IMG/VR virus record: IMGVR_UViG_2690316028_000001
Location: 1 to 5,153 of that record
Direction: 5' to 3' (one strand)
From: a virus
Lineage: Duplodnaviria > Heunggongvirae > Uroviricota > Caudoviricetes
DNA: 5,153 bases
Positions 1-5,153 of the stretch are shown here, piece by piece. The position numbers were made by a program, and so were the translations under genes. Numbering within the stretch: the stretch's first letter is position 1; each line of letters opens with the position of its first letter. The notes below the pieces were generated by a model, which searched no databases, was not told the DNA's origin, and worked only from the letters and a program-made list of their open reading frames with translations.

Positions 1-44
1 AGAGGCGTGTCCAAGCGAGGGGGATATCTTCAATATTGAGGTAA
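1..44 (+). CDS. 3' end of an upstream gene (partial, start outside window)
   Basis: Frame 3 is open from position 3 to a TAA at 42-44, which overlaps the ATG at 44-46 of the next gene (TAATG). Only about 14 codons are visible, so identity is unknown. Confidence 0.3.
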   Translation, partial: RRVQARGISSILR

Positions 45-661
45 TGCCGCTCTACACCGTCCCTCCAGCGCCGGTATCTGTGCCCGCTGCGATGGAAATG
101 GATGATGACTTTGACAGCGCGTTTGAACACGGAAAAGCTGTCGGCTGGAACGCCTATCGCGCCGCCATGCTTCAGGCCGAACCTGTAAGTAATAGTGATG
201 AGTTACCGCTGGACTATCTGCAAGGACACAAAGACGGCCTGGAGTGGGCTGCACAATTGGCAGAAGCCAATCATCCACAAACAGGTGACTGGCTGTACGA
301 TGACCCAATCGATCTTGCACGGGCGATTAGCAAAGGTCCAGATATGCCTACCGCTCAGGCTGGCAACCATACCGAGCAACACCTCTACATGGTAGACCAT
401 TCTGGTGATGCCAACAAAATGGTGGCTGGCAACTCTCCGGTGATTCCGGATGGATGGAAACTTGTTCCGATTGACCCAACAAAAGATATGTTGCGTGCTG
501 GACAATCGGTGGTTGGGTTCTGGCTGAATACAGTGCATTGCTACTCGAAAATGCTCGCCGCCGCACCAGCAGCGCCGAAGCAGGAGGTTACTCAGGCGCT
601 TGCCAAAGGCATGGAACGTTATGGCGATGCCATGCAAAAACTCGCAGATAGTGGTGACTGA
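44..661 (+). CDS. Hypothetical phage protein, 205 aa, function unknown (nin-region accessory gene)
   Basis: Long ORF in the same orientation as the flanking phage genes, with GAGG at 38-41 and a TAATG stop/start overlap with the upstream frame. Acidic N-terminus (MEMDDDFDSAFEH) and Ala/Pro-rich tail. I recognise no family or catalytic motif. Confidence 0.6.
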   Translation: MPLYTVPPAPVSVPAAMEMDDDFDSAFEHGKAVGWNAYRAAMLQAEPVSNSDELPLDYLQGHKDGLEWAAQLAEANHPQTGDWLYDDPIDLARAISKGPDMPTAQAGNHTEQHLYMVDHSGDANKMVAGNSPVIPDGWKLVPIDPTKDMLRAGQSVVGFWLNTVHCYSKMLAAAPAAPKQEVTQALAKGMERYGDAMQKLADSGD

Positions 662-688
662 TTTTTGGTAATCATTTTTCAAAAGTGA

Positions 689-697
689 TGTTATAAT
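689..697 (+). promoter_or_regulatory. Candidate extended -10 promoter element (TGtTATAAT)
   Basis: TGTTATAAT at 689-697 matches the extended -10 consensus TGnTATAAT exactly; there is no good -35. The predicted start (~704-706) falls at the beginning of the hairpin region. Confidence 0.3.
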
Positions 698-698
698 T

Positions 699-760
699 AA
701 GTCGCAGTCGGTCTGAACAGCCGGTTGCGACTTCTGCGCATTTAAGGGGACTTAAATGCG
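699..760 (+). promoter_or_regulatory. Tandem stem-loops in the intergenic region upstream of ninB (possible tR2-like terminator or RNA regulatory structure)
   Basis: Hairpin 1: 699-711 (aagtcgcagtcgg) pairs with 721-733 (ccggttgcgactt), 13 bp including two G-U pairs, 9-nt loop. Hairpin 2: perfect 10-bp stem 737-746 (cgcatttaag) with 751-760 (cttaaatgcg), GGGA loop. Neither is followed by a U-tract. Confidence 0.35.
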
Positions 761-847
761 ACCACAATCTGAACTCCTCACCTTGTCACAGATGCAGAAA
801 TGCACCTGCGATTTTCTTCATTCTGCGTTACCTCTCGGAGGTGGCGT

Positions 848-1285
848 ATGAAACAGCCTGTTTTCTACCTCCGCGACGAACGCGTTCGCGATAACCTCAT
901 CGACTACATCAGGAAGCTGCCTGTTAACGACGCTCTGCCGCTCGTGGTGAAGTTTTCTGAGGCTGACCGCACTCTCGCCCAAAACGACCTCTTCCACGCT
1001 CTCTGTGGCGATACAGCGAAGCAATTGCAATGGGCTGGCAAGTCGCGCGACCTCGCTTCATGGAAAGTCCTGTATGTCTCAGGCCATGCCATTGCCACCG
1101 GTAAGCCTGGTGAAGTGGTGCCGGGTCTGGAAGGGGAGTTCTGCGCCATCCGGGAAAGCACTGCGAAGATGGGCATCCGTCGCATGACCAGTCTCATCGA
1201 ATACAGCCAGGCATTTGCTGTGCAAAACGGCGTGCAACTCCGTGAAGTTCGCTACTCAGGTGATTACTTCGGGAGGGTTGCGTAA
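848..1285 (+). CDS. ninB: NinB (Orf-family recombination mediator), 145 aa
   Basis: Resembles lambda NinB in length and sequence pattern (e.g. LAQNDLFHALCGD...QWAGK...ASWK versus lambda LDQNRKLWACLGD...EWHGR...ESWK, from memory). GGAGGTG at 837-843 sits a few nt before ATG 848. The ORF-track start at 800 has no RBS and adds a non-homologous extension. Confidence 0.85.
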   Translation: MKQPVFYLRDERVRDNLIDYIRKLPVNDALPLVVKFSEADRTLAQNDLFHALCGDTAKQLQWAGKSRDLASWKVLYVSGHAIATGKPGEVVPGLEGEFCAIRESTAKMGIRRMTSLIEYSQAFAVQNGVQLREVRYSGDYFGRVA

Positions 1286-1455
1286 TGGCTAGCCCTCTCG
1301 CTCGCATCATCACCAACGAAATCTACCGGGTCCGGACACGCACTAAGCGCAAGCCTGAACTCAAGCCATCCGAAATCCCATCACTGCTCGGCTACACCGC
1401 GCGACTGACCCAGGTGAAATGGGATCGCCTGAAAGCGCGGAGGTCACATGGCTGA
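1285..1455 (+). CDS. ninE: NinE-like small basic protein, 56 aa
   Basis: Not in the ORF track (under 60 aa). ATG 1285-1287 overlaps the ninB stop (TAATG). Translation [56 protein letters not shown] is basic with a W-D/I-R-(W/L) motif, like lambda NinE (about 60 aa). Confidence 0.65.
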   Translation: MASPLARIITNEIYRVRTRTKRKPELKPSEIPSLLGYTARLTQVKWDRLKARRSHG

Positions 1456-1738
1456 TTTGAGAAAAGCAGCGCGTGGTCGGGAATGCCAGGTAAGAATCCC
1501 TGGCGTATGTAATGGCAATCCTGAAACGTCTGTACTGGCACATATCCGGCTGGCTGGATTGTGCGGCACCGGTATTAAACCGCCAGACCTTATTGCCACC
1601 ATTGCATGCTCTGCCTGTCACGACGAGATCGACCGCCGTACACATTTTGTCGATGCTGAGTATGCTAAAGAATGCGCGCTGGAAGGTATGGCGAGAACGC
1701 AGGTTATCTGGCTGAAAGAGGGGGTAATCAAGGCATGA
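1448..1738 (+). CDS. ybcO: DUF1364 / YbcO-like Cys/His-rich protein (putative His-Me finger nuclease), 96 aa
   Basis: GGAGG at 1439-1443 four nt before ATG 1448; overlaps the ninE 3' end by 8 nt. Cys/His-rich ([12 protein letters not shown]...[11 protein letters not shown]...CSACHDEID). Sits between ninE and rusA as ybcO does in DLP12. Confidence 0.7.
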
Positions 1739-2097
1739 ATACTTACAACATCACATTGCCCTGGCCGCCGAGCAATAACCGCTACTACCGCCATAATCGC
1801 AGGCGCACGCACATCAGCACAGAGGGGCAGGCGTACCGCGACAGTGTCGCCAGAATCATCAAAGACTCAATGCTGGATATCGGCCTGGCTACACCCGTGA
1901 AAATACGCATTGAGTGCCATATGCCGGATCGCCGCCGCCGCGACCTGGACAATCTGCAAAAGGCCGCGTTCGACGCCCTGACGAAATCCGGGTTCTGGCT
2001 CGATGACCAACAAGTCGACTACTACAGCGTGAAGAGAATGCCGGTCGTCAAAGGCGGCAGACTTGAACTGACCATTACTGAACTTGAGTCCGCATGA
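1735..2097 (+). CDS. rusA: RusA Holliday-junction resolvase, 120 aa
   Basis: N-terminus [28 protein letters not shown]... and the core ...[38 protein letters not shown]...GGRLELTI match my recollection of E. coli RusA (120 aa). ATG 1735 overlaps the ybcO-like stop (ATGA). The ORF-track start at 1672 adds an unsupported 21-aa extension. Confidence 0.9.
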
Positions 2098-2234
2098 CAT
2101 TCGAATCCTACTTTGCTGATCATCTTCGTCTGCGATGGACTCGGTTACGCATCTATCGTCACCCGGGTTCATTTGCTACGGACTACCGAATACTGAAGAA
2201 TTACGTGAAAACTTATGCTGGAGAAGCGCTATGA
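2094..2234 (+). CDS. ylcG: Small basic protein, 46 aa, YlcG-like (DLP12 rusA-Q intergenic ORF)
   Basis: Not in the ORF track. ATG 2094 overlaps the rusA stop (ATGA) and its TGA at 2232-2234 overlaps the Q ATG (ATGA). Translation [46 protein letters not shown]. Same size and position as DLP12 ylcG. Confidence 0.5.
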
Positions 2235-3061
2235 ACCTTGAAAACACAGTGAAATACCACTTCGCAAAATCCACGCTGATTAGCGATTCTCCGCGCGCTA
2301 CCGCCTCCGATTCACTGACCGGTACCGACATCATGGCGGCAATAGGCATGACTCAGGAACGCGCTGCTATGGGGTACAGTGCTTTCCTCGGCAAGATGGG
2401 CATAAGCAATAACGACCGGGATCGGGCTATCGGACTGCTGGCTGAGTACGCGATGACCAAATGTGACAAGGTTGCCGCGCTGCGTAAGTTGGATTTCGGG
2501 GTTAAGCCTCAGGTGATGTACCAGTTGGCCACCTTCGCATTTGAGGATTATTCCCGCAGCGCAGCCAGTGTAAAACGGTGCGATTGCTGCAACGGTGAGG
2601 GCTTTATTGATGCTGAGGTATTCAGTATGAAAACCAATACGCCGGCACATGCAAAAGAAATCATTAAGGCATCAAAAGCGTTTGGTTTGAAGGTGATACC
2701 TTCGCAGCACCAAAACAGGCGTGAGGTAAAAGAGATAACGCGCGTTCTCTGTCCTCAGTGCAAAGGGAAAAAAGCCATCAGTTGCGCATGTAGTGATTGC
2801 CGTGGCCGTGGGAAAGCGGTGAATCAGAAGGAAACGAAGCAGCAAGGCGTTCCAGTATTCAGCACCTGCAAGCGCTGTGGCGGTCGCGGATATGAGCGCA
2901 TCCCGTCAACTGAGGCCCACGCAGCTGTTTGCCAGATTACGGATGTAATCAGCCTGGATACGTGGAAGAAGTCCGTTAAACCGTTCTATGATCAGCTGAT
3001 TACGAAATTCGATATTGAAGAGGCATGGGCAGAAAACCAACTGAAACAAATAACACGATAA
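2231..3061 (+). CDS. Q: Late-gene antitermination protein Q (long Q family, Cys-rich zinc-finger region), 276 aa
   Basis: N-terminus [33 protein letters not shown]... resembles enterobacterial prophage Q proteins as I recall them. GGAG at 2220-2223 seven nt before ATG 2231. Four CxxCxG-type Cys pairs. Immediately followed by a PR'/tR'-like region and the lysis genes. The ORF-track start at 2135 has no RBS. Confidence 0.85.
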   Translation: MNLENTVKYHFAKSTLISDSPRATASDSLTGTDIMAAIGMTQERAAMGYSAFLGKMGISNNDRDRAIGLLAEYAMTKCDKVAALRKLDFGVKPQVMYQLATFAFEDYSRSAASVKRCDCCNGEGFIDAEVFSMKTNTPAHAKEIIKASKAFGLKVIPSQHQNRREVKEITRVLCPQCKGKKAISCACSDCRGRGKAVNQKETKQQGVPVFSTCKRCGGRGYERIPSTEAHAAVCQITDVISLDTWKKSVKPFYDQLITKFDIEEAWAENQLKQITR

Positions 3062-3087
3062 CGGCTATGGAAGTTAATTCCAGCTAT

Positions 3088-3125
3088 TTACTTTTCCCGA
3101 ATCTGTGTTAATTTTATCCCAACGA
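3088..3125 (+). promoter_or_regulatory. PR'-like late promoter with expected qut (Q-utilisation) site
   Basis: -35-like TTTACT at 3088-3093 and extended -10 TGtTAATTT at 3106-3114, followed by CAACGATGGGTTAATTCGCTCG, which closely resembles the lambda PR' initial transcribed/pause region as I recall it. Exact +1 not determinable here. Confidence 0.45.
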
Positions 3126-3317
3126 TGGGTTAATTCGCTCGTTGTGGTAGTGAGATAAAAAGAGGCGGCGCTTACTACCGATTCCGCCTAGTTGGTCACT
3201 TCGACGTATCGTCTGGAACTCCAACCATCGCAGGCTGAGAGGTCTGTAAAATGCAATCCCGAAACAGTTCGCAGGTAATAGTTAGAGCCTGCATAACGGT
3301 TTCGGGATTTTTTATTT
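3121..3317 (+). ncRNA. 6S-like short late leader transcript (PR' to tR')
   Basis: About 195 nt between the putative PR' start and the tR' U-tract, the length class of the lambda 6S RNA. The sequence looks near-identical to my recollection of the lambda PR'-tR' leader. Confidence 0.4.
3255..3317 (+). terminator. tR'-like intrinsic terminator (the terminator Q-modified RNAP reads through)
   Basis: Outer stem 3257-3265 with 3299-3307 (tcccgaaac / gtttcggga), inner stem gcagg 3271-3275 with cctgc 3288-3292, followed by TTTTTTATTT at 3308-3317. Confidence 0.7.
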
Positions 3318-3392
3318 GGGTCAGTCGTATAAAGGTCATTACGGAAGGCTGTTAACCTTCTTATCGTGGTTCGAGTCCACGCTGTCCCGCCA
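3318..3392 (+). tRNA. tRNA-Asn (anticodon GUU), phage-encoded
   Basis: Manual cloverleaf. Acceptor 3318-3324 with 3382-3388 (6/7 bp, one U-U mismatch), U8, D stem 3327-3330 with 3339-3342, GG in the D loop. Anticodon stem gaagg 3344-3348 with ccttc 3356-3360, loop CUGUUAA (anticodon 3351-3353). T arm cgtgg-TTCGAGT-ccacg (3365-3381), discriminator G3389, encoded CCA 3390-3392. Confidence 0.65.
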
Positions 3393-3442
3393 AATACCTA
3401 CCAGGACCATAAGAGCAAAAGCTCAACGCACTACCCTCTATT

Positions 3443-3468
3443 GCCCACCGCGCCGTGGGCTTTTTTAT
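3443..3468 (+). terminator. Intrinsic terminator downstream of the tRNA
   Basis: GC-rich stem gcccac 3443-3448 with gtgggc 3455-3460, 6-nt loop, followed by TTTTTTATT from 3461. Confidence 0.6.
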
Positions 3469-3574
3469 TGCAGGCCGCAGATATCATTTTCAGATGCCAT
3501 GTAGCAATCAGAGTCTGACGGCCTTTCCCCTACAAACACACACAGCACCATCCGGAAAATCGGAGGTGAGGCCT

Positions 3575-3898
3575 ATGATAATGCCATACAAACAAGATTT
3601 CATCGCTGCGCTACTTGCCGCCAAGGAGCAGGGTATTGGTGCAATGCTGGCTTTTATCATGGCGTATCTGCGTGGTCGCTATAACGGCGGCGCGGTAACA
3701 AAAACGCTAATTGATGCGCTGATGTGCGCGATGATTGCCTGGTTCGTTCGTGACCTTCTGGACTTTATCGGCCTGAGCAGCAACCTCGCCTACATAGCCA
3801 GCGTCTTTATTGGATACATCGGCACCGATTCGATCGGCAATCTTATTAAAAAACTTGCAGCAAAAAAGGCGGGAGTTGACGATGCAAACCAGTCCTGA
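3575..3898 (+). CDS. S: Class I holin, lambda S family, 107 aa
   Basis: Translation [39 protein letters not shown]...[22 protein letters not shown] is very close to my recollection of lambda S107 ([39 protein letters not shown]...). Dual in-frame starts ATG 3575 and ATG 3581 (Met1-Ile2-Met3); GGAGGTGAGG at 3562-3571. Confidence 0.9.
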
Positions 3899-4331
3899 CG
3901 GAATTGCTCTGATAAAAAAATTTGAAGGTTGTCGGCTGACTGCTTACCCCGACCCCGGAACGGGAGATGCGCCGTGGACCATCGGCTATGGCTGGACCCA
4001 TCCGGTTGACGGAAAGCCAGTAAAGCGCGGTATGACTATCGACCAGCAAACCGCTGACAGGCTTCTGAAAACAGGGCTTGTTGGTTATGAGAATGACGTG
4101 CTGAAAGTTGTCAGGGTGAAGCTGACACAAGGCCAGTTCGACGCACTGGTGTCGTTCGCTTACAACGTTGGGTCGCGTGCTCTTTCCACATCTACACTGC
4201 TGAAAAAGCTGAATGCTGGCGATATAAAAGGCGCGGCAGATGAATTTCTGCGCTGGAATAAATCAGGCGGAAAGGTGATGCCGGGGCTCACGAATCGCCG
4301 CAAGGCAGAGCGAGCTCTGTTCCTGTCATGA
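3882..4331 (+). CDS. Endolysin, GH24 phage lysozyme (P22 gp19-like), 149 aa
   Basis: N-terminus [24 protein letters not shown]...TIGYGWT and C-terminus ...[11 protein letters not shown] resemble P22 gp19 lysozyme (recalled), with the T4-lysozyme-type Glu-8aa-Asp...Thr catalytic arrangement. No signal or SAR sequence. GGGAG at 3871-3875 before ATG 3882; 17-nt overlap with the holin 3' end. Confidence 0.9.
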
Positions 4332-4801
4332 TTAGCGCACTGGTTAAGCGTTACTGGCTGCAGTTGCTGGTGCTGGCGTTAATCGGCGCACTGGCTTTCT
4401 TCGTGAACCACTACCGCGACAACGCCATCACCTACAAAGACCAGCGCGACAAAGCCACCAAAAGTCTCCGCCTGGCTAACGACACCATCAAAGACATGCA
4501 GACCCGTCAGCGCGATGTCGCTGCACTGGATGCCAAATACACGAAGGAATTGTCCGATGCTAAAAAGACCATTAACGATTTGCGTCGTGATGTCGATTCT
4601 GGCGCTAAACGGCTGCGCATCGCTGCAACCTGCCCTGGAGTGCCAAAAGCCACCTCCTCCACCGGCGTGGATGATGCAGGAGCCCCCGAACTTACTCCAG
4701 ACGCTCGACGGAATTATTTCGATCACCGGGACGGAATCGCAACCGCTGACAAAATGATTCGCGGCATGCAGGACTACATCAAAGAGCAGTGTCTTAAGTG
4801 A
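4328..4801 (+). CDS. Rz: Rz i-spanin (inner-membrane spanin subunit), 157 aa
   Basis: ATG 4328 overlaps the lysozyme stop (ATGA). Hydrophobic N-terminal segment ([17 protein letters not shown]) followed by a charged, coiled-coil-like periplasmic domain. Position and architecture are typical of Rz. Confidence 0.85.
4557..4757 (+). CDS. Rz1: Rz1 o-spanin (outer-membrane lipoprotein) embedded in the +1 frame of Rz, 66 aa
   Basis: [22 protein letters not shown] gives a lipoprotein signal with lipobox LNGC, followed by the proline-rich [13 protein letters not shown] (lambda Rz1 has [14 protein letters not shown] as recalled). AAGGA at 4543-4547 before ATG 4557. The ORF-track start at 4515 is upstream of the signal peptide and less likely. 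Confidence 0.8.
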
Positions 4802-4820
4802 TTCGTCACCCAAATAACAG

Positions 4821-4848
4821 AGCCTGACTTCGGTCGGGCTTTTTTATT
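4821..4848 (+). terminator. Intrinsic terminator after the lysis cassette
   Basis: Stem agcctgac 4821-4828 with gtcgggct 4833-4840 (8 bp, one U-G), TTCG tetraloop, then TTTTTTATT. Confidence 0.7.
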
Positions 4849-4872
4849 CCCAGAAGAAGCAGGAGAAGAAGC

Positions 4873-5073
4873 ATGTTAACAGTAAAAGTAATGTCGCCAG
4901 GTGGCGGTGAAGAGATTCATTGCGGGTTGAGTGTAGGGTTCAATCCGGGGCAGCAGAGCATCGCGGTATCGGGAATGGACAAAAATGTATTCCTGAAACC
5001 TGGCGAGGTCGCCTACGTGATGAACCAGAACGGGAAGACGGTATCTCGTTACGAGCATAATGACCGCCAGTAG
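4873..5073 (+). CDS. Hypothetical small protein, 66 aa, function unknown
   Basis: Strong RBS AGGAG at 4861-4865 seven nt before ATG 4873. Gly-rich soluble product (MLTVKVMSPGGGEEIHCGLSVGFNPGQQ...). No family recognised. Lies between the spanins and what would be the packaging genes. Confidence 0.45.
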   Translation: MLTVKVMSPGGGEEIHCGLSVGFNPGQQSIAVSGMDKNVFLKPGEVAYVMNQNGKTVSRYEHNDRQ

Positions 5074-5153
5074 CCATTCCAAAGCTCACCTGCTGGTGGG
5101 CTTGATAATGGATATCCCCCTGAGCGGATAAATCAAAAATAACCCCTGCAACG

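Follow-up and report, generated by a model that had tools for sequence, protein, structure and literature searches.

A putative self-promoted, translation-gated leader heads the nin block of many lambdoid prophages

What does a lambdoid prophage keep in front of ninB, and what is it for? The question is raised by a spacer at positions 662-851 of the stretch of DNA analysed here (the window: 5,153 nucleotides of a Caudoviricetes virus, positions 1 to 5,153 of IMG/VR record IMGVR_UViG_2690316028_000001). The spacer sits in the nin/late-regulatory segment of a lambdoid prophage, between the 3' part of a DUF551-type open reading frame (ORF) that ends at 661 and ninB (848-1285, + strand; Pfam NinB PF05772, E = 5.5e-39). 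An earlier note, made from the letters of the sequence, had described in it an extended -10 motif, two strong hairpins and a small ORF possibly coupled to ninB, and had left three explanations side by side: a termination region, a structured leader that sequesters a ribosome-binding site (RBS) and a protein-binding palindrome. Our analysis tips, somewhat beyond an even call, towards 659-852 being a self-promoted, translation-gated leader or attenuator that heads the nin block of many lambdoid prophages, with ninB as the first gene served in the window; the reading as a leader with a coupled ORF was largely right. In kind, the cassette would be a leader-ORF/translational-coupling device, in an unusual, very widespread and well-covarying form.

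The two hairpins are present where the earlier note had placed them. H1 (699-733, + strand; arms 699-711 and 721-733) has a 13-bp stem with two G.U pairs and a 9-nt loop, UCUGAACAG, or 14 pairs and a 7-nt loop if U712.G720 closes the loop; an inverted-repeat scan finds its 13-nt arms 85% Watson-Crick complementary, the two exceptions being G.T, that is, G.U in the + strand RNA. H2 (737-760, + strand; arms 737-746 and 751-760) consists of ten perfect base pairs, its 10-nt arms being 100% complementary across a 4-nt gap, closed by a GGGA tetraloop of the GNRA type. A Shine-Dalgarno (SD)-like AAGGGGA occupies 744-750, its GGGA forming the H2 loop, an ATG (756-758) lies in the 3' arm of H2, and ACCA (761-764) follows the stem. 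RNA 699-764 folds into exactly H1 and H2 (-31.6 kcal/mol, z = -5.3; none of 200 shuffles equalled it), and the wider segment 690-860, whose folding the earlier note had proposed as a check, is likewise structured (z = -4.7). A terminator scan (at least 5 T in 8) passed neither H1, which is followed by CUUCUGCG, nor H2, which is followed by ACCACAAU, so that the reported lack of a U-run after either hairpin holds.

The earlier note had looked to compensatory changes among homologous prophages to decide whether these stems matter, and the covariation that we find is strong. Relatives were gathered from IMG/VR by exact-pattern scans with two independent anchors (at least 120 contigs per anchor), each anchor being verified in the set gathered via the other. 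Mapping of the cassette by blastn then gave 145 copies, 123 of them distinct, and a covariance model of H1-H2 (R1), built on 15 same-length copies, aligned 80 hits, 63 of them distinct. Across these 63 sequences, standard pairs fill 96.7% of the H1+H2 cells, a level that none of 500 column shuffles reached (81.2% in the shuffles), and 16 of the 20 modelled pairs have changed on both sides, eight out of ten in H1 (94.4% of cells paired) and eight out of ten in H2 (99.2%). The covariation score is 0.441; shuffles score 0.167 and slid registers 0.02-0.07. RNAalifold, run on the same alignment, predicts both helices, with compensatory changes in 13 of its 16 pairs. When 75 distinct H1-H2 variants were folded singly, H2 formed in all of them and H1 was weakened in two degenerate copies. 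The stems themselves are diverse: H1 occurs as GTCGCAGTCGG/CCGGTTGCGAC, GTCACCGGAG/CTCCGGTGAC, TTGCCGCCGG/CCGGCGGTGA and TCTGCCAG.CGG/CC.CTGGCAGA, and H2 in at least five versions (ATTTAAG, TAAACG, TTTGAG, ATATGATT and ATCTGATT). U.G and G.U pairs are frequent, one H1 pair being U.G in 31 sequences and C-G in 28. Neither in duplex DNA nor on the other strand would such positions be matched, so the selected structure is the + strand RNA. The covariation is good enough for a new RNA family entry.

This evidence bears directly on the idea that H1 and H2 are DNA palindromes bound by a regulator, which the earlier note had proposed in the form of a protein-binding palindrome and which is also hinted at in the phage 82 record X92588 (1996), where H1 is labelled a 'possible regulator-binding site'. 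The arms vary freely through compensatory and G.U changes, one H1 position is G.T in about half of the sequences, which would be a mismatch in the duplex, and it is the loops that are conserved, not the arms. A more credible protein site in this region would be the upstream palindrome at 659-674 (see below), not H1 or H2. We consider it very improbable that H1 and H2 are protein-bound palindromes or, as the same alternative may also be framed, that the block is a passive recombination linker between phage modules. The linker idea draws on the flanks of the block, which are mosaic on both sides and break at the -35 and at the start codon downstream; a passive block, however, would not preserve four helices together with a reading frame and a start/stop overlap in sequence types that are unrelated.

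If the arms are free to vary, what is held constant lies between them. The H1 loop, yUGAAC, is constant, its core UGA(A/G)C being found in nearly all of 88 distinct variants gathered via the H3 anchor (one has UGAAU). The H2 loop also stays constant across the stem versions, as GGGA or, in two copies, GGAA, both of the GNRA type. The linker CUUCUGCGC (731-739, + strand), which comprises the base of H1, a 3-nt spacer and the base of H2, is nearly invariant (alignment A1). The conserved H1 loop and linker point to some binding partner. A search of the leader and of the 14-kb identical prophage context showed no conserved target complementary to either of them; in the 14-kb context TGTTCAG/CTGAACA occurs at chance level, all in coding regions. 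Pairing of linker UUCUGC with the 5' side of H3 (GCAGAA), which would make an antiterminator, was rejected: variants in either partner are uncompensated in the other. The H2 loop always contains GGA, and a consistent second single-stranded GGA within ~60 nt, as the criterion for CsrA has it, was not identified. Lambda oop RNA contains UUGUUCAG; we take this to be a coincidence, lambda not being among the phage records that match the cassette. Lambda also has NinE, which, again because lambda is not among the matching records, gives no case of co-occurrence for NinE as the partner.

The second carrier of the argument is the leader ORF (756-851, + strand), whose 31 codons, MRPQSELLTLSQMQKCTCDFLHSALPLGGGV, begin at the ATG in H2 and whose TGA (849-851) overlaps the ninB ATG (848-850), as the earlier note had read it from the SD-like purines to the overlap. 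Among the 123 distinct copies, every one has an ATG or GTG start within the 3' arm of H2, and about 114 have a frame of 31-34 codons that closes with ATGA or GTGA at the next gene's start, whichever downstream family this gene belongs to: NinB-type, YbcN-type or, in one contig, Q. Conservation of the small frame among relatives, which the earlier note had named as a check, is thus borne out. Indels in the leader ORF are always multiples of three, and codons 3-11 are wholly different between sequence types. The ORF is homologous to K-12 YlcH (b4588), with which it shares the core SQMQKCTC-FLH and the same start/stop geometry; it matches no Pfam family. Every relative has its SD-like purines as the loop of H2 and its start codon within the 3' arm of that hairpin, which makes a structured leader that would sequester its own RBS the best supported of the three original options.

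A further hairpin, H4 (821-852, + strand; -16.4 kcal/mol, z = -3.5), was missed by the earlier note. Both the ninB SD GGAGG (837-841), located within the last leader codons, and the start codon of ninB (848-850) are paired in it. Among 90 distinct 3' segments, from three unrelated types, 86 have at least 3 of the 4 downstream SD nucleotides paired in the minimum free energy hairpin. With the downstream SD and AUG locked in H4, only ribosomes that had melted this hairpin a moment before would translate the downstream gene; overlap and buried SD together are the classical arrangement for obligatory coupling. The conserved frame and the ATGA/GTGA overlap support the coupled upstream ORF proposed in the earlier note, and coupling is the best-supported part of our model. 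As an observation beside this, the ninB SD region TCTCGGAGGT (833-842) can pair with ACCTCCGCGA (867-876, ninB codons 7-10), a possible alternative to H4.

Two elements inside the leader ORF may act on transcription. The first is a C-rich, G-poor tract (759-786, + strand), a possible Rho loading site as judged from its composition: its 28-31 nt contain 37% C and 8% G throughout the 46 distinct versions, which belong to several unrelated types, compared with 25.5% C and 26.5% G in the whole window; the tract is short for a rut site. The second, H3 (787-808, + strand), is another hairpin missed by the earlier note: CACAGAUGCA-GAAA-UGCACCUG, followed by the T-rich CGATTTTCTTCA up to 820, makes a weak, terminator-like structure (-10 kcal/mol, z = -2.5), part of which (793-810 plus ATTTTCTTCA) is listed by the terminator scan. 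The stretch that encodes the SQMQKCTC-FLH core is the one that forms H3 and its T-tract, and it hardly varies, third codon positions included. A variant in which CAG..CTG has become CCG..CGG keeps the pairing and changes Q to P and C to G; replacements in the loop (QKC to LSG, LNG or LIG) keep the stem and change the peptide. As these variants retain pairing but alter the peptide, the constraint at H3 appears to be mainly on nucleic acid.

Is the leader transcribed from its own promoter? The perfect TGnTATAAT reported by the earlier note is confirmed as the extended -10 TGTTATAAT (689-697, + strand); its match, TGNTATAAT, is the only one in the window, with ~0.10 expected by chance and at least one match in 17 of 200 shuffles. 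Most relatives have a different form, TTGATT-17 bp-CATAAT, in place of an extended -10. Over the 123 distinct copies the homologous -10 is CATAAT in 90, AATAAT in 12, TATAAT in 9 and CATACT in 8; the -35 is TTGATT in 100 and the spacer 17 bp in 114. The conserved block starts exactly at the -35, and the sequence 5' of it is unrelated between contigs. The same hexamers were annotated as putative -35 and -10 signals in X92588. Conservation thus supports a promoter here, with a predicted start at ~703-705, within the 5' arm of H1: the -10 ends 1-4 nt before H1, so that a start ~7 nt downstream would fall inside this arm and leave a 5'-terminal hairpin without overhang. Some of the phages have, ~20 nt 5' of the -35, an intrinsic terminator of canonical form, GGCCTC(T/C)(T/C)CGGAGGCC plus a TTTCTCTT T-run (L200, L182, L205, L272, L285 and others; its core may also be written GGCCTCCGGAGGCC plus T-run). 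That a canonical terminator stands directly before the -35 in several contigs argues that the cassette opens a new transcription unit.

The promoter carries a palindrome that the earlier note does not mention. In most relatives TTGATT-N6-AATCAA forms both the -35 hexamer and part of the spacer, in which AATCAA is always found; the half-sites are conserved and the 6 nt between them vary. Phi80 has a symmetric variant, TTGATA...TATCAA, and a relaxed pattern (T[G/T]A[A/T][A/T], 4-8 nt, [A/T][A/T]T[C/A]A) is present in 111 of the 123 distinct copies. In the window, TGATT-N6-AATCA is read at 659-674 (+ strand), where it shares bases with the stop codon of the DUF551-type ORF before it, and it is followed by a near-palindrome, ATCA-N11-TGAT (671-689, + strand). 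In this type the palindrome lies ~12 bp further upstream and the promoter leans on its extended -10; being displaced and yet kept, the palindrome appears to be conserved independently of its -35 role. This suggests a candidate operator for a dimeric protein. Consensus sequences for IHF, DnaA, FNR, Fur, boxA and ops, compared by eye with the palindrome, the linker and the H1 arm, gave no convincing fit.

RNA ends mapped in K-12 touch the same element. In prophage DLP12 the homologous element lies between ybcM and ybcN, and the small ORF there is the annotated ylcH (b4588), which overlaps ybcN. Term-seq of MG1655 placed 3' ends (+ strand) at 572349 (LB, optical density (OD) 2.0) and 572350 (M63) (Adams et al. 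2021, PMC7815308). Both fall within ...GGUGACUUCUG(C), with the flank ...CTCCGGTGACTTCTG|CGCTAAACGG, that is 5-6 nt after H1, and correspond to G736 and C737 of the window; the tables of the same study list no other 3' end in ~572200-573099 (ylcH-ybcN-ninE). The position of this end is compatible with termination, pausing, RNase P cleavage and exonuclease trimming alike. In one transcriptome paper, ylcH is 2-fold up under microaerobic growth.

The first of these possibilities was the one that the earlier note had put forward as a termination region similar to tR2. The K-12 end just past H1 speaks for it and the missing U-tract against it: H1 is followed by UUCU only and is not called by the terminator scan. 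In its full form, this explanation holds that H1 is chiefly a tR2-equivalent, a terminator or 3'-end former of the early PR operon that antiterminated polymerase would pass, the promoter hexamers being incidental. The position is the right one, since the lambda map, as generally known, has tR2 in the same place between the replication/ead genes and ninB, and the outer H1 pairs still covary although they lie 5' of the predicted local start. Nevertheless, the -35/17-bp/-10 geometry is kept in more than 100 copies with conservation beginning at the -35, the canonical terminator already found just before the -35 in several contigs would be the real tR2 equivalent in those phages, the cassette occurs twice in some phages and before other genes, Q included, and H2, the ORF and H4 would be left unexplained. 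We therefore regard a tR2-equivalent as quite unlikely. Lambda tR2 itself is a canonical hairpin with a U-tract, devoid of promoter, leader ORF and coupled start; what it shares with the cassette is the map position before ninB in the early right operon and, through the K-12 homologue, an RNA 3' end after a GC-rich hairpin.

Cleavage and trimming lead to another explanation, in which the main product is a small stable processed RNA, H1 or H1-H2, released by an endonuclease and acting as a decoy or regulator. Leader-derived immunity RNAs are known in P1 (C4), P4 (CI) and N15 (CA). The G736/C737 equivalents are the only ends at the locus in the K-12 tables and lie at the base of H2, which would give a ~35-nt species if the promoter is used. 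By its form, H2 of the window, like that of phi80 and HK639, would qualify as a minimal substrate for RNase P, being a 10-bp helix with a GNRA tetraloop and a following ACCA, for which the predicted cut falls between G736 and C737. The ~10-12-bp helix and 3' RCCA (A761-C762-C763-A764 in the window) are shared with the hairpin substrates of RNase P (phi80 M3, P1/P7 C4, P4 CI and the 4.5S precursor). The M3 RNA, a phi80-induced RNase P substrate of ~60 nt, is a candidate for identity with the H1-H2 transcript; phi80 does carry the cassette. Reviews list M3 RNA among the hairpin-like substrates of the enzyme (PMC5499578, PMC11143913, PMC10731613). The conserved loop and linker would also be expected of an RNA that is recognised by something. 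Set against this, the RCCA after H2 is absent in the phage 82/K-12 type and in the third type, the K-12 ends lie 2-3 nt inside the predicted H2 stem, for which exonuclease trimming to H1 or termination would do equally well, and the H1 loop and linker lack the conserved target sought in the leader and the 14-kb context. The strict conservation of the ORF, its overlap and H4 shows a messenger-leader function as well. A processed RNA as the main product is in our view unlikely, if worth keeping in mind. The same modest chance goes to its boldest form, in which H1-H2 would be a phage family of processed small RNAs (sRNAs), present in about a fifth of E. coli genomes, cut at the H1/H2 junction, by RNase P in the ACCA type, and identical to M3 RNA, an orphan for some 50 years, while a factor on the yUGAAC loop and CUUCUGCGC would gate entry into nin/Q. 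Were this true, a processed-RNA family would be a switch toward late gene expression and lysis.

Two stem-loops directly after a promoter in a lambdoid phage also recall the put RNAs, and H1-H2 might act as a processive antiterminator that binds RNA polymerase and carries it past the terminators further down in the nin region without a protein factor. HK639, a put-using phage, carries the cassette, and the terminator-like H3 lies downstream as a possible target. The layout, two stem-loops over ~62 nt right after the promoter, is that of HK022 putL (~60-70 nt), but put stems are described as bulged, with a triple helix and conservation of particular bases (PMC9378689), whereas H1 and H2 are plain helices of free stem sequence, one of which doubles as the RBS hairpin, and put sites stand at PL/PR, not in the nin region. 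Model R1 had no hit at E up to 1 in HK022 27,000-40,751, which is expected to hold putL, putR and the nin region. An RNA that ends after H1 in K-12 and a silent rusA (see below) are the opposite of constitutive read-through. We judge this explanation highly improbable. A lambda-type nut site fits no better when its consensus is compared by eye: there is no boxA before H1, and the H1 loop is 7-9 nt (yCUGAACAr), compared with a 5-bp stem and GNRA-like pentaloop in boxB. The cassette occurs in phages with different antitermination systems.

We thus return to the translation-gated leader, which may work as follows. A sigma-70 promoter (TGnTATAAT in the window, TTGATT-17-CATAAT in most relatives) with its operator-like palindrome would start an RNA that folds, over its first ~60 nt, into two hairpins, H1 at the very 5' end. 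The majority of transcripts seem to stop or to be cleaved directly behind H1. This hairpin would terminate or pause a fraction of the polymerases, or protect RNA ends, leaving the stable species that in K-12 ends just past it. H2, with its purines in the GNRA loop and its start codon in the stem, would throttle translation of the leader. The leader ORF runs past the C-rich tract and the H3/T-tail and stops 1 nt inside the ninB start codon; ribosomes translating it would open H4 and allow ninB (or ybcN) to be translated. The same ribosomes may mask the C-rich tract and disrupt H3, so that transcription would proceed into the nin genes only when the leader is translated. The Rho- or H3-dependent attenuation and the role of H1 in this scheme we infer. 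The cassette stands between the replication genes and the nin/Q block, and directly before Q in some phages, and would therefore control access to Q, which activates the late genes, and to NinB/Orf and RusA/NinG, which act in recombination. The rusA gene of DLP12, which lies downstream, is said to have been found silent by Mahdi et al. in 1996 unless an insertion sequence (IS) inserts upstream. This fits a leader that normally stops expression, and such a leader would explain why rusA stays silent until the IS insertion. If the model is true, it also adds to the timing of the lambdoid lytic programme a checkpoint that lambda itself lacks, and gives a role to the annotated small ORF ylcH.

Several points weigh against this reading. 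Promoter activity is deduced solely from conservation. The outer H1 pairs covary too, which means that full-length H1 must also matter on read-through transcripts from upstream. The H3 stem has little stability (-6.7 to -10 kcal/mol) and is nearly without covariation since it hardly varies, and K-12, whose T-tract there is admittedly degenerate, has no 3' end at H3. For the K-12 locus no Rho-dependent region is given in a dataset that covers LB at OD 0.4 only, where the locus has no listed 3' end either. The alignment on which covariation was scored was fitted to the structure and its sequences were gathered with exact-match anchors; the single-sequence folding and the slid-register control are independent of that fit. 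Finally, the model does not account for the conservation of the yUGAAC loop and CUUCUGCGC, for the binder of the palindrome or for the signal that would open H2.

How far does the cassette extend? By blastn its region is present in 29 phage records, phage 82, phi80, HK639 and HK225 among them and lambda absent; more than 100 IMG/VR viral contigs carry it, and by megablast so do at least 1204 of 5426 complete E. coli genomes (at least 22%), O157:H7 strains included. In the E. coli chromosome NZ_LR536430 a copy of 662-851, 100% identical, lies between repressor/replication/ead genes and NinB. A search of the GTDB collection with the pattern CTGAACA-N9-13-CTTCTGCGC proved too unspecific for 596 Gb: among the matches listed L058 was the only genuine one, nearly all being chance hits. 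Known since 1996, the sequence is partly annotated, as orf33 in X92588, as ylcH in K-12 and as IR4, the mark given to H2 in the phi80 record. It is without an RNA family entry, an Rfam cmscan of the whole window (E up to 1) giving nothing in 662-851; a functional study of the cassette, ylcH or orf33 was not found in the literature searched.

The closest known system is therefore a homologous one, the orf33 region of phage 82 (X92588) and ybcM-ylcH-ybcN of DLP12, with the same order of promoter, H1, linker, H2 with the start codon, ORF, H3, H4 and overlapping next start, and a score of 69.6 bits with model R1. It differs from the window in its -35/-10 promoter, in the stem sequences of H1 and H2, in one H2 bulge and the lack of ACCA after H2, in an ORF of 33 codons with another N-terminal part, and in a next gene of the YbcN type, not NinB. 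More distant parallels are found among leader-ORF systems with RBS occlusion or coupling, such as the P1 c4-icd-ant region and leader-peptide or Rho-dependent attenuators. By analogy, the cassette resembles these in its small ORF, whose translation the overlapping gene would require, its RBS in a hairpin, a C-rich tract and terminator-like hairpin that could be masked and a possible sRNA by-product; unlike them, it has no evident regulatory codons in the leader peptide, no trans-acting antisense partner was found, and there is no sequence similarity.

The cassette also exists in other forms. Two copies lie 2-4 kb apart in several contigs (L283 10348-12852, L276 232-2748 and L264 6816-11112; also L166, L291 and L165). 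The leader ORF of the extra copy is degenerate. In L283 and L276 this copy is followed by a hydrophobic ORF of 29 aa, by a Bro-N antirepressor-like gene and by two other ORFs; in L264 it lies directly before a Q gene. A short form, whose H1 has only 5 bp but retains the CCUGAACAA loop, and which keeps the CUUCUGCGC linker and an H2 that carries GGAG in its loop and AUG in its stem, stands directly before a DUF1367 gene without any leader ORF (L127 3445-4100, - strand; L151, L196, L224 and L243). The duplicate and short forms suggest that the core of promoter, H1, linker and RBS hairpin is a portable expression head for nin-region genes.

Downstream of ninB, the window continues with a NinE-like gene (1285-1455), YbcO (1448-1738), RusA (1735-2097), a Q antiterminator of 276 aa (2231-3061), tRNA-Asn (3318-3392) and, 3' of the latter, holin, lysozyme and Rz genes. 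The Q protein is of the Antiterm type with a DnaJ-type CXXC domain, and the region 3' of it (3100-3315) is 95.8% identical to the lambda PR'/qut/6S RNA/tR' segment, with a hairpin (3255-3309) followed by a T-run; a lambda-type late promoter is thus paired with a seemingly non-lambda Q. The tRNA-Asn (GTT) comes directly after tR' and is followed by a canonical terminator (3443-3460), a layout that is also annotated in mEp506 and Kapi1. Rfam gives a weak match to the isrJ sRNA at 4773-4843, whose 27.2 bits fall short of the gathering score (37); it spans the Rz end and a terminator (4819-4842) and probably reflects terminator similarity. Within Rz, in another frame, an ORF at 4515-4757 has a lipobox-like LALNGC and a proline-rich tail, and likely encodes the Rz1 o-spanin.

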